From IMG/VR virus record IMGVR_UViG_3300045988_101411: a stretch of DNA of 33,213 bases; one strand, given 5' to 3'. The stretch comes from a virus (Duplodnaviria > Heunggongvirae > Uroviricota > Caudoviricetes). Numbering within the stretch: the stretch's first letter is position 1; each line of letters begins with the position of its first letter. A program made the position numbers and the translations under genes. Below, piece after piece: positions 13,318 to 33,213 of this stretch. The notes under the pieces were generated by a model. That model saw nothing but the letters and a program-made list of their open reading frames with translations, was not told where the DNA came from and did not search any database.

Positions 13318-13321
13318 GGTT

Positions 13322-15813: not shown

Positions 15814-16226
15814 GGTTCCCGCTCCTCAAGACGCTGACGACAGGCTTTACGTATCAGCCGGAAAAACAGCGACGCCACAAGATAAATCAGCGCGGTAAAA
15901 ATCCACCCGGTGGCGACCAGCGAGATAAACGTCGCCACCATCACCACCAGAGCCGCCGCCCGTCTGCGCCACGGCACCGGCTGCAAAAACAGCGACGTGA
16001 CAATCTTCACGGCCAGCGATTCCGGCGGCAGCTCCCGCCCGTAGCGTTCCAGTACATACTCTGTGGCATACACCCCGACACCACCGGCAACCACACAGAT
16101 AACCGTCGCCAGAATCGCCCAGGCAGCGACAAAACTGACGGCCACGCTCTGCGGATAAATCAGGGACAGTGCCAGCATCAGCGCCAGCGACACGTGCAGC
16201 ATCAGTGAAAGGGATAATTTCTTCAT
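15801..16226 (-). CDS. lysA: LysA (lysis timing membrane protein), 141 aa
   Basis: Multiple hydrophobic helices; length and position after K. Confidence 0.8.
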   Translation of the reverse strand: MKKLSLSLMLHVSLALMLALSLIYPQSVAVSFVAAWAILATVICVVAGGVGVYATEYVLERYGRELPPESLAVKIVTSLFLQPVPWRRRAAALVVMVATFISLVATGWIFTALIYLVASLFFRLIRKACRQRLEEREPCQG

Positions 16227-16240
16227 GGTGTTTACTCCGT

Positions 16241-16738
16241 TTAAGCCGGTACGCCGCCAGCGGTACGCCAGACGGTGACCAGTTTTTCCAGTGAATGCTC
16301 ACGCTGACCGTAACCGGCACCCGGCAGGGACGCCCAGATATTGCGACAGCGTGAAATGGCACGCTCAATGCGTCCCGCCCGGATGTCATCCAGTGCACCG
16401 CGTTCGCGGATCAACTGAATGGCGAGCCTGTCCTGTGACAACGGACTGAAATCCGGCAGGGCAAGCTGTTTGCGGTAATGCGGCCAGAACAGGTAAAGCT
16501 GCTGATAGCGACCGGAGGCCGTGGATTTTTCACCGCGACGGTTAAACACCTTCGCCGGTCGGCCATGCGCGAACGGGTGGTCACTGTAGTCGGTGAAAAT
16601 TTCCGGCTTCCCGTCCAGTCCGGTGACTATCACGTCATAGCCCCGGTTTTTCGTCAGCGGATGATTCGCCGTCCCTTCGGACACTGCCAGCATGTCGAGA
16701 AAGGCCGCGATATTCTGATGCGTGTTAATTACCGGCAT
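16241..16738 (-). CDS. K: Endolysin K (lysozyme), 165 aa
   Basis: Length and synteny after the holin. Confidence 0.85.
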   Translation of the reverse strand: MPVINTHQNIAAFLDMLAVSEGTANHPLTKNRGYDVIVTGLDGKPEIFTDYSDHPFAHGRPAKVFNRRGEKSTASGRYQQLYLFWPHYRKQLALPDFSPLSQDRLAIQLIRERGALDDIRAGRIERAISRCRNIWASLPGAGYGQREHSLEKLVTVWRTAGGVPA

Positions 16739-17019
16739 TACTGTTTCCCCCTGCCCTTAAAACGGCGCTGAATGGCAATCTCAATCACCTGATAACCGGC
16801 GATACCCAGCATGGAGCCGATGCCGCACACCGCAGGCAGTGACAGGTCAGGAAACTGCACCAGAACAACACCGGCAACCATCGAGACAAAACCACCGAGC
16901 AACATGCGCCCGATAAACAGACGCGGGGTGATGGGTTCACCACCGGCAAGCACCTTGCCGACAACAATCAGCACCCCAATCATGAAAAGCGACAGGACGC
17001 TTTTTTCTTCTGCTGTCAT
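16738..17019 (-). CDS. Y: Holin Y, 93 aa
   Basis: Three hydrophobic segments and a basic C-terminus (RRFKGRGKQ); length matches P2 Y. Confidence 0.85.
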   Translation of the reverse strand: MTAEEKSVLSLFMIGVLIVVGKVLAGGEPITPRLFIGRMLLGGFVSMVAGVVLVQFPDLSLPAVCGIGSMLGIAGYQVIEIAIQRRFKGRGKQ

Positions 17020-17022
17020 GCG

Positions 17023-17226
17023 TTACTCCCACAGATTGACAGTTTCAGCCACGGGCGCGGTCTGAACGTCGGGCAGTTCGACGGCGGTGCCGTGTGGCAG
17101 CACCGCCCCCAGTTCAGCCAGTCCCGGATTTGCGGCGAGCACGGTCTCAACCACGCCCTCAGTGCGCCCGTAATACCGGACACAAATGGCGTCGAGCGTG
17201 TCGCCCTGTAGCGCAAAGGTCTTCAT
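17023..17226 (-). CDS. X: Tail protein X, 67 aa
   Basis: MKTFALQGDTLDAICVRYYGRTEG...; internal ATG at 17224-17226 overlapping the L stop (ATGA); track ORF over-extended. Confidence 0.82.
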   Translation of the reverse strand: MKTFALQGDTLDAICVRYYGRTEGVVETVLAANPGLAELGAVLPHGTAVELPDVQTAPVAETVNLWE

Positions 17227-17735
17227 CAGATTTGACTCACGATGCAGCGCGGCTTGTCCTGGATGCGCGCCACTGCCCAGCGCATATCCCGCCACAGCTC
17301 ATCAATGGTGCTGTCAATGCTGTCGGCCTTCTTGTCGCCTTTCGCACTGGCATCCACGCCGCGATAACGCTCATAAAGCGACGCGGTCGCCATCGCACAC
17401 ACGGCGCGCTCGTAGTAAAAAACTTTGATGCTTTCACCGTCGATGTCGTCCGCCGGGACGTCCGCCAGACGCGTAAAACCGGCGGCAATTTTCTGTTCGC
17501 GGTACTCGTACAGCTCCGCATTCGTCTCCGCCATGCCTGACTTGATGGCCTCACGCAGACGGGCGGGGGCGACGGTCTGCTCAAGGCGCATACGTTCCCG
17601 GACGCGCTTCGGGTCGATATCGGGAAAAAAGAACGTGTTTTTAATCACCGGCTCGTCGCCTGCCGGTTGCGGGATGACCACCGTACCCTCACCGGACACG
17701 GGAGCCTCCTTTCGCGGAATAATCAGCGTCATCAT
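17226..17735 (-). CDS. L: Head completion/stabilisation protein L, 169 aa
   Basis: Start MMTLIIPRK...; length matches P2 L. Confidence 0.82.
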   Translation of the reverse strand: MMTLIIPRKEAPVSGEGTVVIPQPAGDEPVIKNTFFFPDIDPKRVRERMRLEQTVAPARLREAIKSGMAETNAELYEYREQKIAAGFTRLADVPADDIDGESIKVFYYERAVCAMATASLYERYRGVDASAKGDKKADSIDSTIDELWRDMRWAVARIQDKPRCIVSQI

Positions 17736-17834
17736 GACTACCTCTGAAAAGTCGGGCGGTGGACGCCGGTACAGTTTCAGGTGATTCACCCTCACTGACC
17801 GGCGTGCCGCCCTGGCGCGGGGCGCATTCGGTTG

Positions 17835-18578
17835 TTAACTGGCTTTCTTTTTCGGGCGTCCACGTTTTGCCGGTGTCACGCTCCGGGTCTTACGTGGGGC
17901 GCGGGTGGCCGCTTTGGGCTGCGGCTCCGGCTTCGGTTTCAGCTCCCGCTCCAGTCGTTCAATCTCTTTTTTGACGCCTGCCTGACAGTCGAGCTGTGTC
18001 GCACGTTGCAGGTGAGCCAGCGCCCCTGCGGCATCACCAGCGTCACGCAGAAACAGACCGGTGATTTTGTGCAGCTTTGCGCGCACTTCATCAGGCATGT
18101 CAGCCGTGGCGGTCAGTTCAAGGGTGTCCGTCAGCAGGCGGGTATCCACAGACTCACCGGCAGCGTGGGCACGCATGGCCGCGAGCGCCACCTCCTCGGT
18201 GAACATGTACGGCGGGGTGCGGCGGTGTTTACCCGGCATGGTCAGACCGTACTTCAGGGCATAACGGGCAATCTCCAGCGCACCGGCAATATCGCCGGTA
18301 TCCAGACGCCACAGCATGACCGTCATCAGAATGTCATCCTGTGCACCTTTGCCCTGCTCCAGCACGCCGTTCACCCACGGCAACCAGAACGGCAGCAGTT
18401 CGCGTTTTTTCGCGGCCTTAAGCTCTTTTGAATAAATCGCTTTCAGTGTGCGCTGGTCTGCGGCGAGCTTAACCAGCATCTGCTCATAGACAGTTGCATG
18501 TCGCAGCGGGGCGGCTTCCCGCTGCGCGGTTATCGCTGCCGAGACCCGCATCATGTGGCGCTGTGCGGGACTCGTCAT
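17835..18578 (-). CDS. M: Terminase endonuclease (small) subunit M, 247 aa
   Basis: Length and synteny N-M-L; basic C-terminal tail. Confidence 0.85.
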   Translation of the reverse strand: MTSPAQRHMMRVSAAITAQREAAPLRHATVYEQMLVKLAADQRTLKAIYSKELKAAKKRELLPFWLPWVNGVLEQGKGAQDDILMTVMLWRLDTGDIAGALEIARYALKYGLTMPGKHRRTPPYMFTEEVALAAMRAHAAGESVDTRLLTDTLELTATADMPDEVRAKLHKITGLFLRDAGDAAGALAHLQRATQLDCQAGVKKEIERLERELKPKPEPQPKAATRAPRKTRSVTPAKRGRPKKKAS

Positions 18579-18581
18579 CGG

Positions 18582-19655
18582 TTACGCTCCCGGCTCTGCG
18601 GTCGCTTTAGCCGGTGTGGAGAAATCACCGACCTTGATTTTTTCCACCAGACAACCGGCGGCGTAGTCTTCCACCACGTAATCAATGTTCATTGACTCGT
18701 AGTTCTCCACGCGGTCGAGTTTCGGGTTTTCCACAATCACGCGGCGATGGCTGTCATCCATGTAGTAGATGGACAGGTTTTCCAGCTTCGTGATGAGCAT
18801 CGCATCCGCCGGGAAGTACGGGACGCGTACCGCCGGCAGGTTACCGATGCGTTTCTGGCTGATGATGACGTCAGCGGCCAGCATTTCGCTGTTGTCCTGC
18901 TCCTTGTTAACGATGGGGAAATACTTGTCCGCCAGTAGCTGACGCCCCACAATCACCACAAGGTCAGGGTCTTCCTGATACCACGGCTCAATCAGGTTGT
19001 TGGTCGCATCCATCACCAGTGCGTCGAGGCTGGCATAATCACCGCCCTTACCCACGCGGATGACCTCAGAGGTGGTGCGACCTTCCTCGTCAGTGACCTT
19101 GCTCATCACGCGCGCCGGGGCTTCATTGCGGTATTTCTGCAGCCAGCCGACCGCCACATCCTGCAGCATCGGATTGCTGCTGCGGTCAGAGGTTTCTGCA
19201 CGCTTCACGCCGTTAAAACCGGCCATAATGAAATCAAGGGACTGGCGTTTGATAATGGCGTTACGGACACGGAGCTGGAAATCCTGATAACGCGCCCACA
19301 GGTCCAGCGTTTTGTAGCGGATATAAAAATCGAAGTTAATCTGGTCGCATTCGTACTTGTTAGACGCCAGCTTCGAGAAGTCCTTCGGCTGACGCTCGGT
19401 GCCCCCGGCGGTGTCGGTGGTGCTGGCGATGGAGCCGGTGACACCGATGCCAATTTTTTCCCCTTTCATTTCGCTGACCGGCACAATGTTGATGCGGGTC
19501 AGAAAGTCAGAGGACTCCTGCATGGTGTTCATCAGGGTCTGGGTGACCGACGGTTCAACGGTGAATTTTTTCGACACATCACCGGCGTCGATGCCGTTCA
19601 GTTCGGCAACACGGGACAGGTAAGCATTAAATTTAAAGCGGGTTTCCTGGCGCAT
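18582..19655 (-). CDS. N: Major capsid protein N, 357 aa
   Basis: Length and synteny. Confidence 0.9.
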   Translation of the reverse strand: MRQETRFKFNAYLSRVAELNGIDAGDVSKKFTVEPSVTQTLMNTMQESSDFLTRINIVPVSEMKGEKIGIGVTGSIASTTDTAGGTERQPKDFSKLASNKYECDQINFDFYIRYKTLDLWARYQDFQLRVRNAIIKRQSLDFIMAGFNGVKRAETSDRSSNPMLQDVAVGWLQKYRNEAPARVMSKVTDEEGRTTSEVIRVGKGGDYASLDALVMDATNNLIEPWYQEDPDLVVIVGRQLLADKYFPIVNKEQDNSEMLAADVIISQKRIGNLPAVRVPYFPADAMLITKLENLSIYYMDDSHRRVIVENPKLDRVENYESMNIDYVVEDYAAGCLVEKIKVGDFSTPAKATAEPGA

Positions 19656-19713
19656 AGTTTTTCCTGAAATTAAGGGTTAATCGTGAAGGTTTTCCCGGAC
19701 TGACTGACGCCGG

Positions 19714-20568
19714 TCAGCAGTTCGTCATCAGGGCGTCACCGCCACCACCGGTGGCCTTGCTGCGGCGCTGCTGGGTCAGACTTTCGGTGTGGTCGAGACT
19801 GTTTTTCAGGCGGGTGAATGCCTGGCTGGTTTCATCCGCCCTGTCTGTCACCTCCTGCTTAAGTGCGGAAAAGGCGGTTTCCATCTCAGCGAGGCGCTGC
19901 TCAGTGGCGCTCAGTTTTTCCTGCACATGTTCAGCGACAGCGGTCACCGCTTCATGCACGTCATTCAGACGGGCGTCATCGCTCGCCTGTTTGCGGCCAA
20001 AAATGGATTTCACCTTTTCGGTCAGGGCGGTGAACACGGTTTCAGGCAGGTCTTCAAATTCCAGCTCAACAGGCGTTGCCACTGAAATCAGGTTTTCAGG
20101 GCTTAATTTGAAGCGGTTCAGAGGGTTGTGTTTTGCCGTGCGGCAGAATTCAAGGTATTCCGTGCCGAGGCTTGCCGGGTCATCGGTGACGGCCAGCCCC
20201 ACCAGATAACATTTGCCGGTGTTGGCAAAGTTCGGCTGAATTTCCATTGAGGTGTAGACCTTCTGCGCGGCCTTGTTCATCGCGATAAGGTCATCGGTCG
20301 GGGTGATTTTCGCAAACAGCGCCCATTTGCCTTTCAGCGCCGAATCATCGTCAATCTTTTCGGCCTTCAGTTCGGCCACATCGCCATAACGCTTAAAAAT
20401 ACCGTCAGGCAGGATGCCGCGCAGATGTTCCAGGTTAATGCGGCAACCATAGACTCGCGGGTCAAAGGTTTCGGCCATTTCCTGAATATCCTGCGCACTG
20501 ATGACACGCCCGTCACAGGTGTCACCCTCAACGCCGATACGAAAGAATTTTGAGACTTTTTTTGCCAT
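19714..20568 (-). CDS. O: Capsid scaffolding protein O, 284 aa
   Basis: Start MAKKVSKFFRIG... at ATG 20566-20568 (track ORF extended upstream); length matches P2 O. Confidence 0.85.
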   Translation of the reverse strand: MAKKVSKFFRIGVEGDTCDGRVISAQDIQEMAETFDPRVYGCRINLEHLRGILPDGIFKRYGDVAELKAEKIDDDSALKGKWALFAKITPTDDLIAMNKAAQKVYTSMEIQPNFANTGKCYLVGLAVTDDPASLGTEYLEFCRTAKHNPLNRFKLSPENLISVATPVELEFEDLPETVFTALTEKVKSIFGRKQASDDARLNDVHEAVTAVAEHVQEKLSATEQRLAEMETAFSALKQEVTDRADETSQAFTRLKNSLDHTESLTQQRRSKATGGGGDALMTNC

Positions 20569-20741
20569 TGTCAGGAGTCCTGAATAGTGATTAGAGGAGT
20601 CACATGTCGGCATCAGTTTCCCGACGATGCGCATCCTCCGCCATCAGTCCCGGATGGCTTATCACTGACACAACAGCACCTTAGCGAATCGCGGGGCGCG
20701 ACTCAGTAGCCTTGCCGTGTATTCATCACGGCGAGGTATTC
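20569..20741. promoter_or_regulatory. Divergent late promoter region P_O (leftward) / P_P (rightward)
   Basis: Only gap between divergently transcribed O and P; contains dyad GTCGG-N10-CCGAC; corresponds to the P2 P_O/P_P region. Confidence 0.4.
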
Positions 20742-22514
20742 ATGACCATCACCACAGACACCACTCTTTTACACGACCCGCGTCGTCAGGCGGCGCTGCT
20801 GTACTGGCAGGGGTTTTCCGTGCCGCAGATTGCCGCCATGTTGCAGATGAAACGCCCGACAGTGCAGAGCTGGAAACAGCGCGACGGCTGGGACAGCGTT
20901 GCCCCCATCAGCCGTGTCGAAATGAGTCTGGAAGCGCGGCTGACCCAGCTCATCATCAAACCGCAGAAAACCGGCGGTGACTTCAAGGAAATTGACCTGC
21001 TGGGACGCCAGATTGAACGACTGGCACGGGTAAACCGTTACAGCCAGACCGGCAACGAGGCAGACCTTAATCCGAACGTCGCTAACCGCAACAAAGGCGG
21101 GCGTCGCAAACCGAAAAAGAATTTTTTCAGTGACGAGGCCATCGAAAAGCTGGAGCAGATTTTCTTTGAGCAGTCTTTCGACTATCAGTTGCACTGGTAT
21201 CGCGCCGGGCTTGAGCACCGCATTCGCGATATCCTGAAATCCCGCCAGATTGGCGCGACGTTTTATTTTTCCCGCGAGGCGCTGCTGCGCGCCCTGAAAA
21301 CCGGCCATAACCAGATTTTTCTGTCGGCCAGTAAAACGCAGGCGTATGTGTTCCGTGAATACATCATCGCCTTTGCCCGGCTGGTTGACGTTGACCTGAC
21401 CGGTGACCCGATTGTCCTGGGCAATAACGGCGCAAAACTGATTTTTCTCGGCACCAACTCCAACACCGCGCAGAGCCATAACGGCGACCTGTACGTCGAC
21501 GAGATTTTCTGGATCCCGAATTTTCAGGTGCTGCGTAAGGTGGCATCAGGTATGGCCTCACAGAGTCACCTGCGCTCGACCTATTTCTCCACCCCGTCCA
21601 CTCTGGCGCACGACGCCTACCCGTTCTGGTCAGGTGAACTGTTTAACCGGGGACGCGCCAGCGCCGCCGAACGCGTGGAAATCGACGTCAGTCATAACGC
21701 CCTTGCCGGTGGGCTTCTCTGTGAGGACGGCCAGTGGCGGCAGATTGTCACCATTGAGGACGCGCTGAAAGGCGGCTGCACGCTGTTCGACATTGAGCAG
21801 CTCAAACGCGAAAACAGCGCCGACGATTTTAAAAACCTGTTCATGTGTGAATTTGTTGACGACAAGGCGTCGGTGTTCCCGTTCGAGGAGCTGCAACGCT
21901 GCATGGTCGACACGCTGGAAGAATGGGAAGACTATGCGCCGTTTGCCGCCAATCCGTTCGGCTCCCGCCCGGTATGGATTGGTTACGACCCGTCACACCG
22001 TGGCGACAGCGCCGGATGCGTGGTGCTGGCACCACCGGTGGTAGCCGGTGGCAAATTCAGAATACTTGAGCGTCACCAGTGGAAAGGCATGGACTTTGCC
22101 ACCCAGGCGGAATCCATCCGCAAACTCACCGAAAAATATAACGTCGAATACATCGGTATTGATGCCACCGGCCTCGGTGTCGGCGTGTTCCAGCTCGTGC
22201 GCTCGTTCTATCCCGCCGCGCGCGACATCCGCTACACGCCGGAAATGAAAACCGCAATGGTGCTCAAGGCAAAAGACGTTATCCGTCGTGGCTGTCTGGA
22301 ATATGACGTCAGCGCCACCGACATCACCAGCTCGTTTATGGCTATCCGCAAGACCATGACCAGCAGCGGACGCAGCGCCACCTATGAGGCCAGCCGCAGC
22401 GAGGAAGCCAGCCACGCCGACCTCGCCTGGGCGACCATGCACGCCCTGTTAAATGAGCCACTCACCGCCGGTATCAGCACCCCGCTGACATCCACCATTC
22501 TGGAGTTTTACTGA
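20742..22514 (+). CDS. P: Terminase large (ATPase) subunit P, 590 aa
   Basis: Start MTITTDTTLL... with GAGG Shine-Dalgarno; length matches P2 P. Confidence 0.9.
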   Translation: MTITTDTTLLHDPRRQAALLYWQGFSVPQIAAMLQMKRPTVQSWKQRDGWDSVAPISRVEMSLEARLTQLIIKPQKTGGDFKEIDLLGRQIERLARVNRYSQTGNEADLNPNVANRNKGGRRKPKKNFFSDEAIEKLEQIFFEQSFDYQLHWYRAGLEHRIRDILKSRQIGATFYFSREALLRALKTGHNQIFLSASKTQAYVFREYIIAFARLVDVDLTGDPIVLGNNGAKLIFLGTNSNTAQSHNGDLYVDEIFWIPNFQVLRKVASGMASQSHLRSTYFSTPSTLAHDAYPFWSGELFNRGRASAAERVEIDVSHNALAGGLLCEDGQWRQIVTIEDALKGGCTLFDIEQLKRENSADDFKNLFMCEFVDDKASVFPFEELQRCMVDTLEEWEDYAPFAANPFGSRPVWIGYDPSHRGDSAGCVVLAPPVVAGGKFRILERHQWKGMDFATQAESIRKLTEKYNVEYIGIDATGLGVGVFQLVRSFYPAARDIRYTPEMKTAMVLKAKDVIRRGCLEYDVSATDITSSFMAIRKTMTSSGRSATYEASRSEEASHADLAWATMHALLNEPLTAGISTPLTSTILEFY

Positions 22515-23548
22515 TGAGCAAGAAAAAAGGGAAAACACCGCAACCTGCGGCAAAAACAATCACCGCCAGCGCCCCGAAAATGGAAGCATTCACCTTTGGC
22601 GAGCCGGTGCCGGTACTCGACCGCCGTGACATTCTGGATTACGTCGAGTGCATCAGTAACGGCAGATGGTATGAGCCGCCGGTCAGCTTTACCGGTCTGG
22701 CAAAAAGCCTGCGTGCTGCCGTGCATCACAGCTCTCCGATTTACGTCAAACGTAATATTCTGGCTTCAACGTTTATCCCGCACCCGTGGCTTTCCCAGCA
22801 GGATTTCAGCCGTTTTGTGCTGGATTTTCTGGTGTTCGGTAATGCGTTTCTGGAAAAGCGTTACAGCACCACCGGTAAGGTCATCAGACTGGAAACCTCA
22901 CCGGCAAAATATACCCGCCGTGGCGTGGAGGAGGATGTTTACTGGTGGGTGCCGTCCTTCAACGAGCCGACAGCCTTCACGCCCGGCTCCGTGTTTCACC
23001 TGCTGGAGCCGGATATTAATCAGGAGCTGTACGGCCTGCCGGAATATCTCAGCGCCCTTAATTCTGCCTGGCTGAATGAGTCGGCCACGCTGTTCCGCCG
23101 AAAGTATTACGAAAATGGCGCTCATGCCGGATACATCATGTACGTCACCGATGCCGTGCAGGATCGCAACGATATCGAAATGCTTCGCGAAAACATGGTG
23201 AAGTCGAAAGGCCGCAACAACTTTAAAAATCTGTTTCTCTATGCCCCACAAGGGAAAGCCGACGGCATTAAAATTATCCCGCTCAGTGAAGTGGCAACGA
23301 AGGATGATTTTTTTAATATCAAAAAAGCCAGCGCCGCAGACCTGCTGGACGCGCACCGCATCCCCTTTCAGTTGATGGGCGGCAAGCCGGAGAACGTCGG
23401 GTCACTGGGCGATATTGAGAAAGTGGCAAAGGTCTTTGTCCGCAATGAGCTTATCCCGCTACAGGACAGGATCCGCGAGATAAACGGCTGGCTTGGTCAG
23501 GAGGTCATCCGCTTTAAAAACTACTCACTGGACACTGACAACGGCTGA
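22514..23548 (+). CDS. Q: Portal protein Q, 344 aa
   Basis: ATGA overlap with P stop; length matches P2 Q. Confidence 0.9.
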   Translation: MSKKKGKTPQPAAKTITASAPKMEAFTFGEPVPVLDRRDILDYVECISNGRWYEPPVSFTGLAKSLRAAVHHSSPIYVKRNILASTFIPHPWLSQQDFSRFVLDFLVFGNAFLEKRYSTTGKVIRLETSPAKYTRRGVEEDVYWWVPSFNEPTAFTPGSVFHLLEPDINQELYGLPEYLSALNSAWLNESATLFRRKYYENGAHAGYIMYVTDAVQDRNDIEMLRENMVKSKGRNNFKNLFLYAPQGKADGIKIIPLSEVATKDDFFNIKKASAADLLDAHRIPFQLMGGKPENVGSLGDIEKVAKVFVRNELIPLQDRIREINGWLGQEVIRFKNYSLDTDNG

Positions 23549-23553
23549 ACATC

Positions 23554-23575
23554 GCCGCCTGCGGGCGGCTTTTTT
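23554..23575 (+). terminator. Rho-independent terminator after Q
   Basis: GCCGCC-TGCG-GGCGGC stem-loop followed by a T-run (23570-23575). Confidence 0.8.
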
Positions 23576-23717
23576 ACACCCCGTCATCACGCCCTCACAC
23601 GCTCGCCACCGCACAAAACATCCCGCAGACACACCAACGCCCCAGCACACAATCTAAACGCCATCACGACGCGCTCAGACGCTGAAAAAATAAAATCAGC
23701 ACCACCGCCAGCGCGCA

Positions 23718-23736
23718 GTGCTTTCCCCGCCTCGCC
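23718..23736. other. cos: cos site (19-nt cohesive-end sequence)
   Basis: GTGCTTTCCCCGCCTCGCC is the reverse complement of GGCGAGGCGGGGAAAGCAC, the P2 cohesive end as I recall it; located between Q and the cargo, as expected. Confidence 0.8.
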
Positions 23737-23873
23737 CGCCCGCTTCACGGGGCAATTTGAATGCAAATGCATTAGCATTCAAAAGCTATCCCCCAAGCAG
23801 CCTGTAAGAGTTTTTACCTCTACTTGTTTTGCATGCAAATTAATGCAATAGCATATACACCTACAGCATCTGA

Positions 23874-25163
23874 CTACTTTGTAAAAAGAGGCCTATATTT
23901 TTCAAACAAGGAGGTTTCGGATGTATTAACATCAGTGGCAGGCTGCATCTCAGCATGTTGCTTTTGTAAACGCTTAAATCTATCAATTGAATCTTTAATT
24001 AACCAAGACATTGACACCATTTCTAAAGGAGTGCGAAGCATCATTTGCCATGACACCCCCCAAATCAATGAGCTACCAAATTCTTTAAATATCATCGAAT
24101 AGTCTTCACCATCGACAAAAACAAGCTCAAACCCTTCATTCAAAGCTATTTGTTTAAAACAATCCAAATCAAGAACACAGAGAATGGTTAACTCCCCATT
24201 TATAAAGTCACACAAATCACGCGCATCATTTATAAGATTAACAAATGGAGTTAAAGGAACCCACAATTGATTATTTTTATATTCATTCAAAAATATAGGT
24301 GCAATTTTCCTCCCTCTAAGATCCAACTGTGATAATGCTATTTCCAGATCACAGCCACGATTAGATACCACATAAAATCCATCTTCTAGCCTTACCCATG
24401 AAATTCCTTTTTTCCTGCATACATTCAGATGCTCATTAAATTCTTTTTTATATGTAACTTCTGAAAAACACAGTTCTTTCCTTAACACTAATGGCATCCC
24501 TCTAAAATCTTCAGCTTTATCTTCTGCTAAAAATTCAGCCAGTCTATTAAGGTTATTTTTTTGACGTTCAACACGATCATTTTTATTTTGACTTGATTTC
24601 ACCTCCACTAGTACTGGTGCACCTTCACCAAGTAAACAAACATCACCATGCCTCATACTCATTGTAATATCATTGAGTAACGTAGGAACACCAGCCTTGC
24701 AGGCCTTCTTCACCAATTCCCATTCTTCTTTTAAGCCATCCTTCCCTCCCATATAGCCTGCTGACTCCTTGGGACTGTAATCCACAACATTATAAAAAAA
24801 ATGCTTAATATCAAACTTATCCAAATACAAAAAAGCAACACTATCACCAAACATTTTGAAGATATATATTTTAAATTTCACATCATCAATAACCTGCTCA
24901 ACACTCTTAATATTTTCCTTAATAAGTTTAGATTGTTCTTTTTTTAAACCACCTTTTCTTTTTGTTGCCTTTAGTTCCCCTAAGAAAGACTTTAATCCTT
25001 TGATCATCCTTTCACTTCTAATTATATTCCTTATTATTTTGAACTGAAACGACAACAACAAATCTGTATTTTTTAGGTTTCCCTCTAATTTTACCAGGTC
25101 TTTTTTCAAATCAAACACTACCGAGTCATGCAATTTTCGACTCAATTCAGTCTTAAACTTCAT
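23874..25163 (-). CDS. Cargo gene 2 of the tin/old-hotspot cassette: 429-aa protein with PD-(D/E)xK-like nuclease signature; function unknown
   Basis: ATG 25161-25163 with GAGGGA Shine-Dalgarno; EEWELVKK (acidic helix) then RHGDVCLLGEGAPVLVEVKSS (D174, E187-x-K189; motif encoded at 24597-24644, verified by manual translation); no Walker A P-loop; strongly AT-rich. Confidence 0.85.
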   Translation of the reverse strand: MKFKTELSRKLHDSVVFDLKKDLVKLEGNLKNTDLLLSFQFKIIRNIIRSERMIKGLKSFLGELKATKRKGGLKKEQSKLIKENIKSVEQVIDDVKFKIYIFKMFGDSVAFLYLDKFDIKHFFYNVVDYSPKESAGYMGGKDGLKEEWELVKKACKAGVPTLLNDITMSMRHGDVCLLGEGAPVLVEVKSSQNKNDRVERQKNNLNRLAEFLAEDKAEDFRGMPLVLRKELCFSEVTYKKEFNEHLNVCRKKGISWVRLEDGFYVVSNRGCDLEIALSQLDLRGRKIAPIFLNEYKNNQLWVPLTPFVNLINDARDLCDFINGELTILCVLDLDCFKQIALNEGFELVFVDGEDYSMIFKEFGSSLIWGVSWQMMLRTPLEMVSMSWLIKDSIDRFKRLQKQHAEMQPATDVNTSETSLFEKYRPLFTK

Positions 25164-25275
25164 AGTTCCCTCAATAAAAGCAACTTACAGTCAAGGTAAT
25201 TACTCCTGTAGTGGAACAGACTATTGCAGTCTCGCTCCACCACTAGTATAACAAGTGTCAATACGGCATCAACGA

Positions 25276-26007
25276 TTAGTTATCTAATACTGAAACGACT
25301 TCGCCCGTTCGGATGTCGACACGCGCAGCAATAGTCTGTTTAACTACTCCTCCATAAGCATTAGTGCCACGAAATGTGGTTTTCACAATGGCGTGCGGGT
25401 CTTTATTCAAAACCAAATGATATACCGTTGACACATGTTTATAAGATGAATCATCGTTCATATTATCTTTAATTAGTTTTTCCAATGGACGATAAGAACC
25501 ATCCCAACCACTAAAATTGCTCTGAAATGTATCAAGATTGATTTTATTGTTTAGTGAATTCGGGTCATTTTCATAATCATTAAAGCACCACCCAAGAACA
25601 TCACCGAGTTTCAACTCATCATCTTTGGTAAATGTATACTCACTCATGCAGGCATAAAATGCATCTGATGCGGTGACTGGCACTTTCTTAAAGTTAATGT
25701 AACTATTCACAATATCGTGTCGAGTCTTCTTTGGCTCGTTCCGATATTCCTTGAGTGTTTTTTCAGTATATTCGAATGTTTTTTGAGCCTGGTGTTCTGC
25801 TACGGTTGCTGTTTCAGTTTTAGCAACTGGCTGGCTTTTTTCTGTTGGGTAGAGTATTGAACCAATTATGCTCAATGCAAAACCACCTCCGAGATAAACC
25901 GCACTTGCACGTTTACGGTTTGGCATCCGCACCAGTGATGGCTTGATTAACCCGATGAAAAAAGCAACGAAAAAAGCGAGTGATAGAAAAGCGATTACAA
26001 TATCCAT
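25276..26007 (-). CDS. Cargo gene 1 of the tin/old-hotspot cassette: membrane protein with two N-terminal TM helices and a soluble C-terminal domain, about 243 aa; function unknown
   Basis: ATG 26005-26007 with AGGA Shine-Dalgarno (track ORF starts at an upstream GTG 26031); hydrophobic segments IVIAFLSLAFFVAFFIGLI and AVYLGGGFALSIIGSILY; co-oriented with the downstream 429-aa gene; AT-rich. Confidence 0.8.
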   Translation of the reverse strand: MDIVIAFLSLAFFVAFFIGLIKPSLVRMPNRKRASAVYLGGGFALSIIGSILYPTEKSQPVAKTETATVAEHQAQKTFEYTEKTLKEYRNEPKKTRHDIVNSYINFKKVPVTASDAFYACMSEYTFTKDDELKLGDVLGWCFNDYENDPNSLNNKINLDTFQSNFSGWDGSYRPLEKLIKDNMNDDSSYKHVSTVYHLVLNKDPHAIVKTTFRGTNAYGGVVKQTIAARVDIRTGEVVSVLDN

Positions 26008-26236
26008 AGCTATCCTTTTTGCATCATCCACATAAAAAATCGACCTTATGTTAGCAACAGGAAGCTTACTTTTGAATATTTGTAAGTTGTTAGCTTTAGC
26101 TCTCCGAGCTAACTCCTTTCAACCGTCAAAAACCAGCACCAACGCAGTAAAAATATGACTGTCAACTAACGCCTCGCTTCGCTCGTTGTTCAACCCCGCC
26201 AGCCCTGAAAACAAGTTTCACGACTGGCGGCGTTCT

Positions 26237-26443
26237 CTATCGTCTGCGTGGTGGTGGCGTAACTCTTGATTGACCGATATGGTTAAACCGCCCGTAATTA
26301 TCCCGGACTATTTCGGCACACCCGACTAGCTCATCTGGCGTCAGATTTTCGTTGACCATAATCCGCTGTAAACGCTGAACAATAGCCATCAGCTTGATAT
26401 TTTTAGTTTTATGGTGCGGTATCTCGCCTGGTATTCTGTGCAT
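26237..26443 (-). CDS. Small hypothetical protein (about 68 aa), translationally coupled to the upstream ASCH gene
   Basis: ATG overlaps the ASCH stop (TAATG at 26441-26445); no recognisable motif. Confidence 0.5.
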   Translation of the reverse strand: MHRIPGEIPHHKTKNIKLMAIVQRLQRIMVNENLTPDELVGCAEIVRDNYGRFNHIGQSRVTPPPRRR

Positions 26444-26895
26444 TATCCAAGCCACCCGTTTTGCTGTGCACGCTCCATCTGTTCATCTGAATAGTTCCAT
26501 GCTTCATCCGTGGCAACCATTGCACCGCCAGACATCCCCGTCTCTGGTTCATACATAACAGCAAGGCCGAGCTGATGCATAATTTCATGATTAATTCTGA
26601 ATACCAGACCACGCTCACTAAGTTCTTTCCAGTTCACAATCTCATATGCACCTGTATTAAGCAGCTCAATACTTAGCAAGACATAATCTTCCAGCCAGTC
26701 TGACAGGTCAGTAACATCTGTTATCCGGGCTTCAACCTTTCGCCCCGTATACACACCCTGCCCCCATTCATGCAAAATCAACGTGTCCCCGCGCTCATAA
26801 TTACGGTCATTTTTCCGAAACTCTGCGCGTTTCTTTCCTTCCAGCACAAGGTCGAAATATTTTGCGTGCAGCTTTACCTCGTGAATTTTTGCCAT
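26443..26895 (-). CDS. ASCH-domain protein (GxKxxExR motif) with a C-terminal HExxH motif, about 150 aa
   Basis: LEGKKRAEFR matches the ASCH hallmark GxKxxExR; NHEIMH contains HExxH; start ATG overlaps the A stop (TGATG) with GGAG Shine-Dalgarno. Confidence 0.75.
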   Translation of the reverse strand: MAKIHEVKLHAKYFDLVLEGKKRAEFRKNDRNYERGDTLILHEWGQGVYTGRKVEARITDVTDLSDWLEDYVLLSIELLNTGAYEIVNWKELSERGLVFRINHEIMHQLGLAVMYEPETGMSGGAMVATDEAWNYSDEQMERAQQNGWLG

Positions 26896-29180
26896 CATGT
26901 CCACTCCATTACTGTTGAAAATCCCGGCCATTCATCAGCGACCGGATACGTGAATTTTTTCCCGTCATAATTTACGGTTGCCCCACGCGCCAGCGCCTCA
27001 AGCTCCCATCGCTGCGGCCTGATACTATTCTGAGCAAGGTCAACGCGGATACGGGTAATTTGCATTCTTTCCGACCGGGTCAGTCTGGCCGATGGTGCAA
27101 TTTCATGTGGTTTTAACGGGCTTCCGTTTCTTTGCTGACGGTTTGGCGTTCTCAGGTCGTGTTTTAATGCGCCCCTGAGCGCCCTCACGACCTCCGGTTC
27201 ATTCCATTCAATAACACCGTTATCAACCAGATTAAGCACTGCTGCGGCGTGCTCAGAAGGTGTGGGAGCCGGTAACGAAGCATCACCACCAGTGAGCTTT
27301 CCACAGTTATTGACAGGACTCCGAGGCGCGGCGATGCCGCTTTTTAAAGTCAAAGGCTCAACGACCGGCACTTTCGGAACAATGCGCCAGTCCGTCGTTC
27401 TGGTGATATGAATATGACGCGCGCCGAGATGCGGCGCGTAAATGCCGACCACTCTCTCGACTTCTTCCTCATACTCGTTAACGTCATCCGACGGGCTACG
27501 GGCGACCCTGACAGTCTGACAATCGCGCGGGACATTTGCCCCACCCTGCGCGCTGATATACAGCGCAAAATCGCCACTGTCTGCGGCAGCGCGTGCAGCC
27601 TCGACGCGTTCGTCAAACTCATCAGCAATGCTGACGCCGCGAGGCAATTTGCGTAGTTCACGGTAAGCCCCCATTGTCGGCAGGCCAACCGTTTTAAATT
27701 GCGGAATGCGCCACGTTGACGCCCATGCGGTAACAGCCGCGGCAGTGTCTTTCAGCGGCCTGCCGGTATCGTTATCGAGCTGACCATCCAGTGCATAGCC
27801 GTCGATGTTTTTTGAAATGTATTTCGCGATATATCCCGCAGCACCGCCCCGGTTAAGGTGTTTTGCCTGAAAACGGTTTCGCGCAGCTCCTCTTTCGTCT
27901 CCATCCTCTTTGAGCGCGTAGCGACGCATGATTTCGATAATCTGGTTACGCTGGCGTGGATTACAAAAAAGCATCATATGCCAGTGCGGCGTTCCGTCGT
28001 GGTGTGGCTCGACGACACGCAAACCGTAGACCTGTAAATCATTATCCTTGAATGCCGTGCGCATCAGGCTCCAGATGCGGCAGAGATAACGCTGCGCATC
28101 CTTTGGATTAAATGCCTCATCGTTCCAGCCGTGATTAAGCTGAACGGTTTTACTTTCGCCTTTTCTGACCTGACGTGTCGGGTGATACTTTGACGGCGCG
28201 GTCAGCGTGATAAACATCCCCACATCACCCTCTGCGGCGGCGTAACGCTCAATACCGGCAATGGTGTTCATCAGCTCCATCCGGCGAATTTCAGGATTAG
28301 AAATACTGCCCATCACCTTACTGATAAGGTCGATACGCTCGCCGGTTTCCCTGTTTTCAAGGTCACACGATTTAAGAAATTCCAGATTTGCCTGGCGGCG
28401 CGCACGCACATCACGAATGGCGTGTTTACTGGCATAAGGAGAACGGTCTTTATTGACCTCCCCGACAGCTATCAGTAACGCTTCATGCCAGCGCATACGC
28501 TGGCCTTTAAGCTGATGAGTCCACCACTCATCGTTAAACAGACGGGCAATTGCAGAATATGCCTGCCTCGTGGTCATCTGTCCTTTACGGTATTTTTTCC
28601 AGTAAAGCGGGGAAATATTGAAAGCACGTGCAGCGCCAGCAACATGACCATAGAGGTGAGCCTGCGCCTCATCCGTAAACAGCGATTCTTTCTCGCCATG
28701 CGCATCCACCCAGGCATCGCAGAGTTCCTCATACATCATGAAAAGCTGTGATGAGATACGGGCGGCAAACTTTTTCAGCTCCTTGTCATTCATCCCCGGC
28801 AGGCGCGCATACTGGTCGCGCTCTGCCAGAAACAGCAACGACGCGTCGGTGTTCATTTCATGGCGCTGATTCACGCGCTCAATGCGCGGCCATAAACGAC
28901 GCTGAAAAGTGGATGTGAGGAAATAAAACCCGTGTACCGGGCTTTTATTGCGCCGGATGTAGTCATAGCGTGAAGTAAACAGCGAGCGCAAAAAGTAAGG
29001 CAGGCGGTTAATCGTGGATAAAACACCTTGCACCTGACGCATCTCATCACGTGTAAGGGGTCTTTCGCGCCCGACAGCCTCGCGTGGCGCGTTCCATGCA
29101 TAAGCACCGGCAAACGTCTTACCGGTGCCTGCGGCAAATGCTGACGGAGGGACAAAACGCCCGGAGGCTTTAACGGCCAT
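26895..29180 (-). CDS. A: Replication initiation protein A (rolling-circle nickase), 761 aa
   Basis: Start MAVKASGRFVPP... at ATG 29178-29180 (track ORF extends to a TTG); length matches P2 A; position after orf83. Confidence 0.88.
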   Translation of the reverse strand: MAVKASGRFVPPSAFAAGTGKTFAGAYAWNAPREAVGRERPLTRDEMRQVQGVLSTINRLPYFLRSLFTSRYDYIRRNKSPVHGFYFLTSTFQRRLWPRIERVNQRHEMNTDASLLFLAERDQYARLPGMNDKELKKFAARISSQLFMMYEELCDAWVDAHGEKESLFTDEAQAHLYGHVAGAARAFNISPLYWKKYRKGQMTTRQAYSAIARLFNDEWWTHQLKGQRMRWHEALLIAVGEVNKDRSPYASKHAIRDVRARRQANLEFLKSCDLENRETGERIDLISKVMGSISNPEIRRMELMNTIAGIERYAAAEGDVGMFITLTAPSKYHPTRQVRKGESKTVQLNHGWNDEAFNPKDAQRYLCRIWSLMRTAFKDNDLQVYGLRVVEPHHDGTPHWHMMLFCNPRQRNQIIEIMRRYALKEDGDERGAARNRFQAKHLNRGGAAGYIAKYISKNIDGYALDGQLDNDTGRPLKDTAAAVTAWASTWRIPQFKTVGLPTMGAYRELRKLPRGVSIADEFDERVEAARAAADSGDFALYISAQGGANVPRDCQTVRVARSPSDDVNEYEEEVERVVGIYAPHLGARHIHITRTTDWRIVPKVPVVEPLTLKSGIAAPRSPVNNCGKLTGGDASLPAPTPSEHAAAVLNLVDNGVIEWNEPEVVRALRGALKHDLRTPNRQQRNGSPLKPHEIAPSARLTRSERMQITRIRVDLAQNSIRPQRWELEALARGATVNYDGKKFTYPVADEWPGFSTVMEWT

Positions 29181-29445
29181 ATGAGCCAAAAGCCTCTGAA
29201 CAACGCTTGCTGAGTTGCTCAACCTGCGCGTTTAAATCAGCAAAAGACTTTGCGCTTCCGGTCAGAATATCGTGATGCATCAGGCCGGAAACGAGCTGGC
29301 TTAATTTCGGGTAATAACCAACCACCGACAGCCATTCCTGACCGGCGTTTTTACCGCTTTCCGCTCTCTTTTTCTCGTGGAGAATAAACTGAAAGCTGTC
29401 ACTGGTAACGACATAACGTCCGCCAATTTCAATACGAATACTCAT
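29170..29445 (-). CDS. Small early protein (P2 orf83 position), 91 aa
   Basis: ATG with GGAG Shine-Dalgarno; synteny. Confidence 0.7.
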   Translation of the reverse strand: MSIRIEIGGRYVVTSDSFQFILHEKKRAESGKNAGQEWLSVVGYYPKLSQLVSGLMHHDILTGSAKSFADLNAQVEQLSKRCSEAFGSYGR

Positions 29446-29666
29446 GCCGTTCTCCGGTAATGTTTGTTTTTTGCTTCAAAGACTGACTGACAGGAAACAC
29501 AACGCGTGGCTGACGGATAAGCCGCACGACGGGCAGCAGGTATTGGTGCGTCACACTCTTCGCAAACCAGCGCAGAAACACCGCAATGTTTTACCCTTGC
29601 CGCGTTAATCTGGCGCTCCAGTAATTCAGCCTGTTGTTCCTGAATAAAATCTACGTTGTCCGGCAT
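29442..29666 (-). CDS. TraR/DksA-family C4 zinc-finger protein (P2 orf82 position), 74 aa
   Basis: CxxC...CxxC (CEECD ... CVSCQ); AAGGAG Shine-Dalgarno; synteny. Confidence 0.75.
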   Translation of the reverse strand: MPDNVDFIQEQQAELLERQINAARVKHCGVSALVCEECDAPIPAARRAAYPSATRCVSCQSVFEAKNKHYRRTA

Positions 29667-29668
29667 TA

Positions 29669-29968
29669 TCAGCTCCTTTTATCGTTAAGTTTCCTGGATA
29701 CATCAGCGCAATAACTGGCAAGTTCTGTCGTTAATTTTGTCAGTTCATCCACTGAGGAAATTTGCTTATGAAATACAGCGCGTTTAACAAGTAAATTGAC
29801 CACATCAGACAGGAGATTTAATTCGTTCTGATAAATCGCGAAAACAGATTCAGTTATTTCGCGTTTTTCTTTATCAAACCTAAGTTGAATAAGAGACAAA
29901 TCGCCATTCTCCATAACGGCGATTTTTAAGGCGTTATTCAGTAATACAACTGAACGAGAACAGGACAT
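29669..29968 (-). CDS. Small early protein (P2 orf81 position), about 99 aa
   Basis: ATG 29966-29968 with GGGAGG Shine-Dalgarno (track start is a TTG one codon upstream). Confidence 0.7.
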   Translation of the reverse strand: MSCSRSVVLLNNALKIAVMENGDLSLIQLRFDKEKREITESVFAIYQNELNLLSDVVNLLVKRAVFHKQISSVDELTKLTTELASYCADVSRKLNDKRS

Positions 29969-30192
29969 CAAAGCACCTCCCCGCGAGACAATCCGATATT
30001 GTGAAATTTTTCCGACTCCTGACTGAGCAGCTCGACTATCTCCACGCGGGATAACTCCGCCTTTGTGATATGGCGAATCATGGCGTCAAGATGAGAAGAA
30101 AAGCGTGTCGCTGCGTCGGCCTGTGCTTCGGCTCTGGCCTATTGCAGCAGTAATGCGTATTTACCGCACTTGTTTTCAGAAACTGTATGCAT
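29968..30192 (-). pseudogene. orf80-position small ORF interrupted by an in-frame TAG at codon 18 (30139-30141)
   Basis: Manual translation: [76 protein letters not shown], ending with TGA that overlaps the next ATG (TGATG). Confidence 0.45.
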
Positions 30193-30255
30193 AACTTTCT
30201 CCAGGCAAAAAGAAGCCCCGCACGATTAAGTGCGTTAAAAACTCTGGTTGATTAT

Positions 30256-30762
30256 TTAATGCAGATATTGCTCTGGTTTTACCGACGTCAGAATTGTCGG
30301 TGCATACTCAAACAGACTGAATAACTCACGTAATGCACGGAATAAAGCATCACGCCAGTAACATGATTCTTCATTAATTCGCCAGTATGGCTGGTTAAAT
30401 TCTTTTTCTGTCAGTCGTGCGTGCATAAATAAAGTACGGCGCTGACTGACTGTTAAAAAACTAATATATGCATACTCACTTGCGCCAACCTGACGGCGTT
30501 TTGAGAATGCCCCACGCAATTCATCAATTGCACAAACCAGTCGTTCACGTTCGACGTCGTTCATTTCTTCAAAACGCATCGTTGCGTGACGCTGTTTTAA
30601 CTGCGCATGAAAGCAAACCGTTAGCCGTTCGCGTTCCATCATCTGATTATAATAATCGCATGTCTCCTGCCAGCGAGGGACGGCCAGATGCTTACCAATT
30701 ATCCGGCGCATAGTTGCTGGCTGTTTTTCAACGAGATTGAGCGTCATCACTGTCATTTCCAT
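30256..30762 (-). CDS. B: Replication protein B, 168 aa
   Basis: Length close to P2 B (about 166 aa as recalled); GGAGGG Shine-Dalgarno; synteny between orf78 and orf80. Confidence 0.8.
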   Translation of the reverse strand: MEMTVMTLNLVEKQPATMRRIIGKHLAVPRWQETCDYYNQMMERERLTVCFHAQLKQRHATMRFEEMNDVERERLVCAIDELRGAFSKRRQVGASEYAYISFLTVSQRRTLFMHARLTEKEFNQPYWRINEESCYWRDALFRALRELFSLFEYAPTILTSVKPEQYLH

Positions 30763-30923
30763 ACCCTCCGGCTTTTCAGAAAGGTCAGAGCCTTTTTTAA
30801 CGGACTCTGTTTTTTGGTGCGGATAATGATTCCCTTACGCCCCTTACCGTGGGTGATGGTGAAGTCAATCGCCCTGGGGCTTTCGTTACGCAGTAACTGA
30901 GCAATACAACGAGGTTCATTCAT
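30753..30923 (-). CDS. Small early protein (P2 orf78 position), about 56 aa
   Basis: ATG 30921-30923 with AAGGAG Shine-Dalgarno; track ORF extended to GTG. Confidence 0.6.
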   Translation of the reverse strand: MNEPRCIAQLLRNESPRAIDFTITHGKGRKGIIIRTKKQSPLKKALTFLKSRRVWK

Positions 30924-30933
30924 ACGGTTCTCC

Positions 30934-31209
30934 TTAACGTGGTTCACCGAGACCTAACCACATCAACCAGCCGTCACGAATCTCTTTAGGGCGGCTTTCA
31001 TAAGCCAGTTTTAGTCCGTTATTCCATGCCGGAAGGTATACCCAATATTCACCTGCACGACCTGAAGCTGATTGTGGATCGGTCATATCAATTACAGGCA
31101 GCTTTCCTTTATCGATCATCCGACGAACCGCTCCTGTCGATTTTCCTATTAGTTTTGCGAACTCCTGATAAGGAATCGCATCAGTCATGAGTGTTACTTG
31201 CTTGCTCAT
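30934..31209 (-). CDS. cox: Cox excisionase/repressor of Pc, 91 aa
   Basis: MSKQVTLMTDAIPYQEFAKLIGKSTGAVRRMIDKGKLPVI... helix-turn-helix; GGAGGA Shine-Dalgarno; divergent from C; length matches P2 Cox. Confidence 0.9.
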   Translation of the reverse strand: MSKQVTLMTDAIPYQEFAKLIGKSTGAVRRMIDKGKLPVIDMTDPQSASGRAGEYWVYLPAWNNGLKLAYESRPKEIRDGWLMWLGLGEPR

Positions 31210-31290
31210 GTCGTCCTCCAGCCCTCATGAATTGCGTTTAATGCCTTATAATGCCTTTTAGTGCACACATCCAAGCACTAAACAATCTAC

Positions 31291-31320
31291 ATCTAAACTA
31301 AATACTATTGAGATCTAAAC
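31291..31320. promoter_or_regulatory. Candidate C-repressor operator: 8-bp direct repeat ATCTAAAC x2 spaced 22 bp, in the Pe/Pc switch region
   Basis: ATCTAAAC at 31291-31298 and 31313-31320 (third partial copy CTAAAC at 31277-31282); P2 C is known to bind direct repeats about two helical turns apart flanking the Pe -10. Confidence 0.5.
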
Positions 31321-31323
31321 ACC

Positions 31324-31623
31324 ATGTCAAACACGATAAGCGAGAAGATAGTCTTAATGCGAAAATCAGAGTATTTGAGCAGACAACAACTTGCTGATTT
31401 AACAGGGGTTCCGTATGGCACGCTGAGTTACTATGAAAGTGGTCGTTCAACACCTCCAACAGATGTCATGATGAACATCCTGCAGACCCCACAATTCACC
31501 AAATACACTTTATGGTTCATGACCAATCAGATCGCTCCTGAGTCCGGGCAAATTGCGCCCGCTCTCGCACACTTTGGGCAAAACGAAACAACGTCTCCCC
31601 ACTCCGGTCAAAAGACTGGTTAA
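31324..31623 (+). CDS. C: Immunity repressor C, 99 aa
   Basis: Helix-turn-helix QQLADLTGVPYGTLSYYESG; length matches P2 C; upstream of int on the same strand. Confidence 0.9.
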   Translation: MSNTISEKIVLMRKSEYLSRQQLADLTGVPYGTLSYYESGRSTPPTDVMMNILQTPQFTKYTLWFMTNQIAPESGQIAPALAHFGQNETTSPHSGQKTG

Positions 31624-31738
31624 CAATTCATCGTGAATATATTCATCACAAGTGCCTACTATTGGTGGCTAAATTTCAGCCACCACGAAAAAAGCGATTA
31701 GTAGTCGCCAAAAAACACACCACTCGGAGGGTTTTCTG

Positions 31739-32752
31739 ATGGCAATCAAAAAACTCGATGATGGTCGATATGAAGTGGACATCCGCCCTACTGGACGTAA
31801 TGGAAAACGCATCCGTAGGAAGTTTGATAAGAAAAGCGAAGCTGTCGCTTTCGAGAAATACACGTTGTACAACCACCACAATAAAGAATGGCTATCAAAA
31901 CCAACAGACAAGCGACGTCTGTCGGAGCTGACACAGATCTGGTGGGATTTAAAGGGTAAACACGAAGAGCATGGGAAATCTAATCTTGGAAAAATTGAAA
32001 TCTTCACAAAAATAACGAATGACCCATGCGCATTTCAAATTACGAAATCGCTTATCAGCCAGTACTGCGCCACCCGAAGAAGTCAGGGTATTAAACCTTC
32101 GAGTATCAATCGTGATTTAACATGTATTAGCGGCATGTTTACAGCCCTGATTGAAGCGGAGTTATTCTTTGGTGAGCACCCTATCAGAGGGACAAAAAGG
32201 CTTAAGGAGGAAAAACCAGACACAGGCTATCTCACGCAGGAAGAAATTGCCTTACTGCTTGCTGCTCTTGACGGCGACAATAAAAAGATTGCGATTCTTT
32301 GCCTGAGTACTGGAGCTCGTTGGGGAGAAGCAGCTCGTTTGAAAGCAGAAAATATCATCCATAACCGCGTCACGTTTGTTAAAACGAAAACAAACAAACC
32401 ACGCACCGTCCCGATCTCAGAGGCTGTTGCCAAAATGATCGCGGATAACAAACGAGGTTTTTTATTCCCTGATGCTGATTACCCTCGCTTCAGACGAACA
32501 ATGAAAGCAATAAAACCGGATTTGCCAATGGGGCAAGCCACACATGCACTAAGGCACAGCTTTGCCACTCATTTCATGATTAATGGAGGAAGTATTATCA
32601 CGCTACAACGGATACTAGGTCACACGCGGATTGAGCAAACTATGGTTTACGCTCATTTTGCTCCAGAGTACCTTCAGGACGCCATTTCTCTTAATCCGCT
32701 GAGAGGTGGTACTGAGGCCGAGAGTGTCCACACAGTGTCCACAGTAGAGTAA
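31739..32752 (+). CDS. int: Tyrosine integrase, 337 aa
   Basis: Catalytic-domain residues R...HxLRHxxAT...Y (ALRHSFATHF, MVYAHF); length matches P2 Int; adjacent to att core. Confidence 0.92.
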   Translation: MAIKKLDDGRYEVDIRPTGRNGKRIRRKFDKKSEAVAFEKYTLYNHHNKEWLSKPTDKRRLSELTQIWWDLKGKHEEHGKSNLGKIEIFTKITNDPCAFQITKSLISQYCATRRSQGIKPSSINRDLTCISGMFTALIEAELFFGEHPIRGTKRLKEEKPDTGYLTQEEIALLLAALDGDNKKIAILCLSTGARWGEAARLKAENIIHNRVTFVKTKTNKPRTVPISEAVAKMIADNKRGFLFPDADYPRFRRTMKAIKPDLPMGQATHALRHSFATHFMINGGSIITLQRILGHTRIEQTMVYAHFAPEYLQDAISLNPLRGGTEAESVHTVSTVE

Positions 32753-32831
32753 CGTTTAAGGGCTTTCAGTGGTCATTTATGCCGCTCAAACCCGCATTGT
32801 ACCGTTGAAAGCCCCTACTGATGACACCCTA

Positions 32832-32859
32832 AATCTCCCTTACACGGGCTTATTTTTTA
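32832..32859. repeat. att core copy (int-proximal junction, attL-type)
   Basis: Identical 28-mer to 106-133. Confidence 0.9.
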
Positions 32860-33213
32860 TACATAAACCATAGAGACGGATTGATCCCAGGTGACCGTCT
32901 TCCATTGACCACATCGATAGAATCTCCCTTCATAGCACGATGCCTTTCACGTAACGGCATCGTGCTCGCACAGGTTCCGGTTACGCACAGCCAGAACGCG
33001 CATGTTTGACGCTTACCAAAAAATATTCTCACTCTCCACATTTGAATGTCAGACGAGCGACGCCATGTAATCCTGCACCTTCTGTCTTCAGGTCAACTAT
33101 CTGCATTTTTTTGCCCTGAGTAACACAGAAATGGGCTGCATCATTTTTTACTATATTTTCTGCACCAGATATTCTGCCCCTGGCTAAAGAAGCTTCGGCT
33201 TCGGTGTAGTATT

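Follow-up and report, generated by a model that had tools for sequence, protein, structure and literature searches.

A probable fresh pseudogene: an amber codon at position 18 of orf80 in a P2-like prophage of Escherichia coli

Orf80 of bacteriophage P2 (NP_046791) belongs to the DUF2732 family (PF10809; PHROG 128) and has no known function (table 4 in PMC3091744); the literature gives its function only as 'unknown'. In the P2 genome, a hairpin between gene B and orf80 is annotated as a putative terminator, which implies that transcription would have to read through this terminator to express the genes from orf80 to A. Single CAG-to-TAG transitions are represented among the classical amber (sus/am) mutations of phages, where a Gln-inserting suppressor would restore the wild-type residue. 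CAG-to-TAG is the one nonsense change that is reverted to the wild type by the Gln-inserting suppressor supE/glnV44 or by near-cognate readthrough with tRNA-Gln. In addition, an interrupted gene of the DUF2732 family has been annotated in E. coli ET729 (NMD49_RS09095, NZ_CP100927.1), where PGAP lists a pseudogene 'DUF2732 family protein, internal stop'. The feature described here is of an already known kind, since the lesion flagged as a pseudogene by the NCBI pipeline in ET729 is identical to it, namely a CAG-to-TAG change at codon 18.

The analysed window, i.e., the whole stretch of 33,213 nt taken from the IMG/VR record IMGVR_UViG_3300045988_101411, comprises a complete P2-like (Peduovirus) prophage and short stretches of flanking host DNA; the prophage is located between yegQ and yegR of the E. 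coli chromosome. Its early operon is encoded by the minus strand in the order cox, orf78, B, terminator-like hairpin, orf80, orf81, orf82, orf83, A (Table 1), and the arrangement from B to A is the same as in P2. The hairpin between B and orf80 itself spans 30219-30234; its stem consists of 5 bp and is GC-rich. The orf80 copy of the window shares with that of P2 the length of 225 nt, the start, the overlap of its stop codon with the next start codon and ~96% of its nucleotides; it differs at codon 18, which is CAG in P2 and other members of the family and TAG in the window. The gene had originally been assigned to the orf80 position from the letters of the window, and this assignment proved to be correct: the P2 genome (NC_001895) contains a 225-nt Orf80/DUF2732 CDS between B and Orf81, which aligns with the frame of the window base for base.

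Table 1. Features of the early operon of the P2-like prophage around orf80 (positions in the window)
Feature	Position	Strand	Remarks
cox	30934-31209	-	
Gene B (Phage_RepB)	30256-30756	-	intact; upstream of orf80
Terminator-like hairpin with T-run between B and orf80	30205-30234	-	conserved; annotated as putative rho-independent terminator in P2
Shine-Dalgarno sequence GGAG of orf80	30199-30202	-	7-10 nt ahead of ATG; invariant in aligned relatives
orf80 (DUF2732 / PHROG 128) reading frame	29968-30192	-	74 codons, broken at codon 18
Part of orf80 predicted to be still translated	30142-30192	-	17 codons (MHTVSENKCGKYALLLQ)
Amber TAG in place of invariant CAG (Gln18)	30139-30141	-	changed position is + strand 30141, with A in the window and G in relatives
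Predicted ribosome-free stretch, amber codon to orf81 start	29971-30138	-	168 nt
Residual 37-codon ORF from Met38	29968-30081	-	no Shine-Dalgarno sequence upstream (tttcttctcatcttgacgccATG)
Shine-Dalgarno sequence GGAGG of orf81	29976-29980	-	within the 3' end of orf80
orf81 (DUF5405)	29669-29968	-	intact; ATG overlaps orf80 stop
orf82 (DksA/TraR C4 zinc finger)	29442-29666	-	intact
orf83 (DUF5405)	29170-29445	-	intact
Gene A (replication endonuclease, 761 aa)	26895-29180	-	intact; last early-operon gene downstream of the lesion

The original prediction had described a 74-codon ORF with a plausible start, a TAG at codon 18 and a TGATG coupling to the next gene. Translation of the minus strand from the ATG at 30192-30190, which is preceded by GGAG, bears this out, and the TGATG was found at 29970-29966, where the stop codon TGA of orf80 overlaps the ATG of orf81. 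The T of the amber codon is the complement of the plus-strand base 30141. The next in-frame ATG (30081) does yield 37 aa only, and the view that the frame is open and protein-like on both sides of the TAG was upheld by profile searches. With Gln restored at codon 18, the deduced protein matched the Pfam DUF2732 profile with an E-value of 5.7e-10 (39.5 bits with a cut-off of 25; residues 13-65) and the PHROG 128 profile with an E-value of 1.8e-33 (residues 3-70). Since both matches span the TAG, genuine coding sequence lies on either side of it. Membership in the DUF2732 (PF10809)/P2 Orf80 family is indicated both by the profile match and by the synteny from gene B to orf81, but the uninterrupted frame of approximately 73-77 codons that holds the whole domain in the family is broken here by the TAG at codon 18; the DNA therefore belongs to this gene family, but as a pseudogene. 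No internal stops were found in the remaining phage genes of the window, orf80 being the sole case among 39, which argues against a chance feature.

Alignment of the homologues showed a sense codon at position 18 in every case, and this codon is CAG, as had been suggested for it. CAG was found in all homologues examined, namely in P2, in at least 73 phage records, in 115 IMG/VR contigs (full-length orf80 copies, picked via a 19-mer that contains CAG) and in 45 family members. The same codon is present in all six close relatives aligned with the window, among them sequences of E. coli, Yersinia phage YpM_46 and phage fiAA91-ss, as well as in ten contigs of the same prophage lineage. Of the two versions of this 19-mer, the one with CAG is contained in at least 120 IMG/VR contigs, and a search of IMG/VR for the exact one spanning the TAG gave no match. 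The matches of the TAG 19-mer obtained in other collections (three in GTDB genomes and four in JGI metagenomes) turned out to be unrelated DNA that contains it by chance, with 27-31% identity over the gene. When the 37-aa residual ORF and the 429-aa cargo protein of the prophage were looked up as exact sequences, only copies with CAG, frameshifted copies or copies at contig edges were retrieved.

The 45 aligned family members come from at least eight genera, with identities as low as 60%; Q18 does not vary among them, and L16, Q17 and A19 vary little or not at all. Q18 lies within the conserved motif LLQQA, and residues 16-19 (LQQA) form the best-conserved part of the N-terminal half of the protein. 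The start Met is located approximately 17-19 residues upstream of Q18 in all 45 homologues. According to these alignments, the TAG at codon 18 is derived, not ancestral.

The closest relative of the prophage was found in the genome of E. coli 19KM1831, a dog rectal isolate. In the regions 24000-32800 and 1-9000 of the window (~17.8 kb), base 30141 is the sole difference between the two; in a comparison of the region 28954-33024, ten differences were counted; nine of them lie beyond int, in the flanking host DNA from 32859 on, and the tenth is 30141. Leaving aside a block of late genes and an IS3-family element in gene A of 19KM1831, the prophages differ by base 30141 alone. A single-base difference over such a length points either to one very recent transition or to a base-call error. 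Relative to the intact genes, the lesion is a single derived substitution that places a stop inside a conserved domain, which is the pattern of a nonsense pseudogene. Most probably, orf80 is a fresh pseudogene produced by one recent nonsense mutation in an otherwise intact P2-like prophage. One G:C-to-A:T transition (C to T on the coding strand) would have converted the CAG of the invariant Gln18 into the amber codon.

Other differences between the window and the 19KM1831 locus were also recorded. In the region 1-28956, there are 262 differences, all of which fall within 9000-24000; 259 are in the late-gene region 12000-24000, and this distribution clearly points to that late-gene block as a recombination block. 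The IS3-family element (29960-31273 of the 19KM1831 locus) splits gene A of 19KM1831, and gene A of the window is intact; thus, with the IS3 insertion in one and the TAG of orf80 in the other, each of the sister prophages has its own private lesion. The yegR-side host flank next to int (32859-33213) contains nine SNPs within a stretch of ~160 nt, together with an indel of 171 bp at 33024. Since the adjoining prophage DNA is identical in both, these differences are due either to different hosts or to recombination in the flank.

Other occurrences of the amber allele were looked for with a 55-mer centred on the changed T. With this probe, any megablast seed must contain the T and alleles with SNPs no more than 27 nt away on both sides are missed; TAG was found in one of 5,426 complete E. 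coli genomes (ET729) and in none of 50,697 phage records. Counted by places, the amber allele is present at 1 of 1,902 in the complete E. coli genomes. The prophage of ET729 occupies the yegQ/yegR site, as in the window, and its Int, C, Cox and Orf78 proteins are those of 19KM1831; it differs in having another B-orf80-orf83 haplotype, with nine further differences in 301 nt, and different cargo genes. Identity between ET729 and the window is 97.2% over 6.3 kb. Base-by-base comparison showed that KSC9 is the same as ET729 over 1,587 nt (from B to orf83) except for the codon-18 base, codon 18 being CAG in KSC9, and ten more genomes gave the same one-mismatch alignment score against ET729 as KSC9. 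Since ET729 has siblings with CAG and a haplotype different from that of the window, the TAG codons of the two prophages seem to be of independent origin; judging by these haplotypes, the same C-to-T transition arose twice independently.

Short-patch gene conversion between alleles of the ET729 type and the window type was also considered and was judged less likely than two mutations, because a tract shorter than 38 nt between the flanking markers would be needed. A template-switch origin was rejected on inspection of the sequence: the 12-nt quasi-palindrome CTGCTGCAACAG is weakened by the change, not perfected. No hot-spot mechanism is evident at codon 18, and its C is outside the Dcm (CCWGG) context. 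Per site and copy, private variants occur at a rate of approximately 5e-5 to 1e-3 (from 1 SNP in 17.8 kb and 28 singleton sites in 115 x 225 nt). With ~1,900 copies, the probability of finding the same change in another of them was estimated to be of the order of 10-50%, so two origins are not remarkable.

Further lesions of orf80 are present in public assemblies, namely single-nucleotide deletions (1 nt) within the T-run of codons 30-32, several products with frameshifts or fusions and a B-orf80 fusion formed by deletion through the microhomology CGGTAAA. Some of these lesions are probably the product of error-prone assemblies.

Three options had originally been offered for the interrupted frame: a recent inactivating mutation, a gene expressed only in amber-suppressor hosts and a mis-assigned start. 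The first of them is supported by the CAG codon of all homologues and by the single difference from the nearest relative. A mis-assigned start, with the real gene beginning downstream of the TAG, is refuted. An in-frame ATG is present at codon 38, but it is not preceded by a Shine-Dalgarno sequence, in contrast to the conserved GGAG before the upstream ATG; homologues starting downstream of the TAG, which would have spoken for this option, were not found, as all of them start at the upstream ATG. The high conservation of LQQA, with Q18 invariant across at least eight genera, and the family profiles that span the TAG also argue against it. As for a gene made only under suppression, one part of the option stands, in that a Gln-inserting suppressor, or readthrough of the TAG by tRNA-Gln, would give the wild-type protein; the other part does not, there being no sign that the TAG is maintained. 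A stop conserved among the homologues, as programmed readthrough or recoding would require, is not observed, since codon 18 is CAG everywhere save for the one independent case of ET729. The element has neither a cognate suppressor tRNA nor a reassigned code: no tRNA or suppressor gene was found in the window, and the genetic code is standard because TAG normally terminates two other genes, gene S and the gene of the 429-aa cargo protein. Thus, it is scarcely credible that the TAG is functional and that orf80 is a conditional gene.

Two further readings concern the codon itself. Loss of orf80 could be recurrent or selected, codon 18 being a mutational hot spot or the knock-out being advantageous to the lysogen. 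Such a reading can refer to the two independent origins, each with otherwise identical CAG siblings (19KM1831 for the window and KSC9 for ET729), and to the other orf80 lesions of public assemblies; the repeat of the change in ET729 need not be a matter of two plain random events and could reflect a hot spot, selection or a systematic problem of sequencing. Nevertheless, with ~1,900 copies, a second hit at a given site has an appreciable probability by chance, the allele is absent from the phage and IMG/VR collections, and neither the position of the C outside CCWGG nor the weakened quasi-palindrome fits a hot spot. Recurrent or selected loss is therefore considered very unlikely. A base-call or consensus error, in which case the true sequence would be CAG and orf80 would be intact, is rather unlikely. 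In favour of an error, the relative is otherwise identical and differs at this one base only, and the two positions next to the changed base coincide with a hot spot of contig starts, which suggests read-level trouble at this spot. On the other hand, systematic errors do not typically take the form of a stop-creating substitution, the site is neither a homopolymer nor a Dam/Dcm motif, and the same T was obtained in the independently assembled complete genome of ET729. Accordingly, a recent nonsense mutation is preferred as the explanation of the amber codon.

The hot spot of contig starts was observed in public data. Short-read contigs from many samples, produced by several assemblers, begin immediately 3' of the amber base, with AGGCCAGAACC or GGCCAGAACC. 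These starts (AGGCC... or GGCC...) correspond to the second or third base of codon 18 (window positions 30139-30140) and were found in Logan, ENA metagenomes and NCBI drafts. A 56-aa partial DUF2732 protein is present in 76 blocks of the contig index, and the partial proteins of 57, 55 and 53 aa are present in one block each. In IMG/VR, no variant base precedes GGCCAGAACC, and no assembled variant was found at the hot-spot positions. A spread sample of complete genomes contained no structural junction at the hot spot; the one apparent junction belonged to a chimeric metagenome scaffold. A real pair of co-resident prophages (Ecol_656) gave no explanation of the contig starts, the two being identical from -31 to +80 of the gene. 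The hot spot suggests read-level heterogeneity or systematic noise adjoining the amber base. It is very unlikely that codon 18 is a recurrent target, whether through real heterogeneity within populations, a hypermutable site or repeated selection to silence orf80 in lysogens; if this were true, it would hint at a cost of Orf80 or at a role that is worth switching off.

The AlphaFold model of Orf80 (mean pLDDT of 84) shows a two-helix hairpin with helices at residues 4-45 and 49-69, and Q18 is located in the first helix with pLDDT above 90. A Foldseek search with this model against PDB and BFVD found no significant match. If orf80 is a fresh nonsense pseudogene, translation from the normal start in a suppressor-free host would end after 17 residues, and the two-helix DUF2732 protein would not be made. 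Expression of the ORF starting from Met38 is unlikely because of the absence of a Shine-Dalgarno sequence upstream. Near-cognate readthrough or a suppressor of the supE/glnV type would insert Gln and thus would give the wild-type protein. Unlike the classical amber mutations, the TAG is found in a natural prophage and in a gene without known phenotype, with no sign of selection or of laboratory making; nothing suggests that its suppressibility to the wild type is more than a coincidence.

The neighbouring genes B, orf81, orf82, orf83 and A are intact. Each of orf81 and orf82 is preceded by its own strong Shine-Dalgarno sequence, so both can still be translated independently of orf80, and the location of the orf81 GGAGG inside the 3' end of orf80 makes initiation possible without coupling. 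The 168 nt predicted to be free of ribosomes may cause some Rho-dependent polarity on the genes from orf81 to A. This possibility follows from the composition of the first 80 nt of the stretch, which are C-rich and G-poor, with a C/G ratio of 1.5 that is above the 90th percentile of the operon. Because the early operon is under repression in lysogens, the lesion is likely to be neutral for as long as the phage persists as a prophage.

For annotation, the orf80 CDS of this prophage should be given as a pseudogene with an internal stop rather than as a protein of 37 aa or 74 aa. For this copy of the prophage, the result is the loss of a small accessory early gene through one point mutation, and its genes for replication, lysis and morphogenesis all read intact. 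If the phage is viable, it represents a natural knock-out, which could help in testing whether Orf80 is dispensable. The biological weight of the finding is small, and only the recurrence at codon 18 and the contig-break hot spot are mildly curious.

The prophage also contains cargo ORFs at positions known as insertion hot spots of P2. A minus-strand ORF of 369 aa (7271-8380) is located between FI and G, at the P2 Z/fun hot spot, and has no Pfam or PADLOC match. Two other minus-strand ORFs, 23874-25163 (429 aa) and 25276-26031 (251 aa), are located between Q and an orf91-like gene followed by A. They occupy the P2 tin/old hot spot, likewise have no Pfam or PADLOC match and may form an uncharacterised cassette of the defence or moron type. 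The 429-aa protein is widespread, being present in 163 index blocks.
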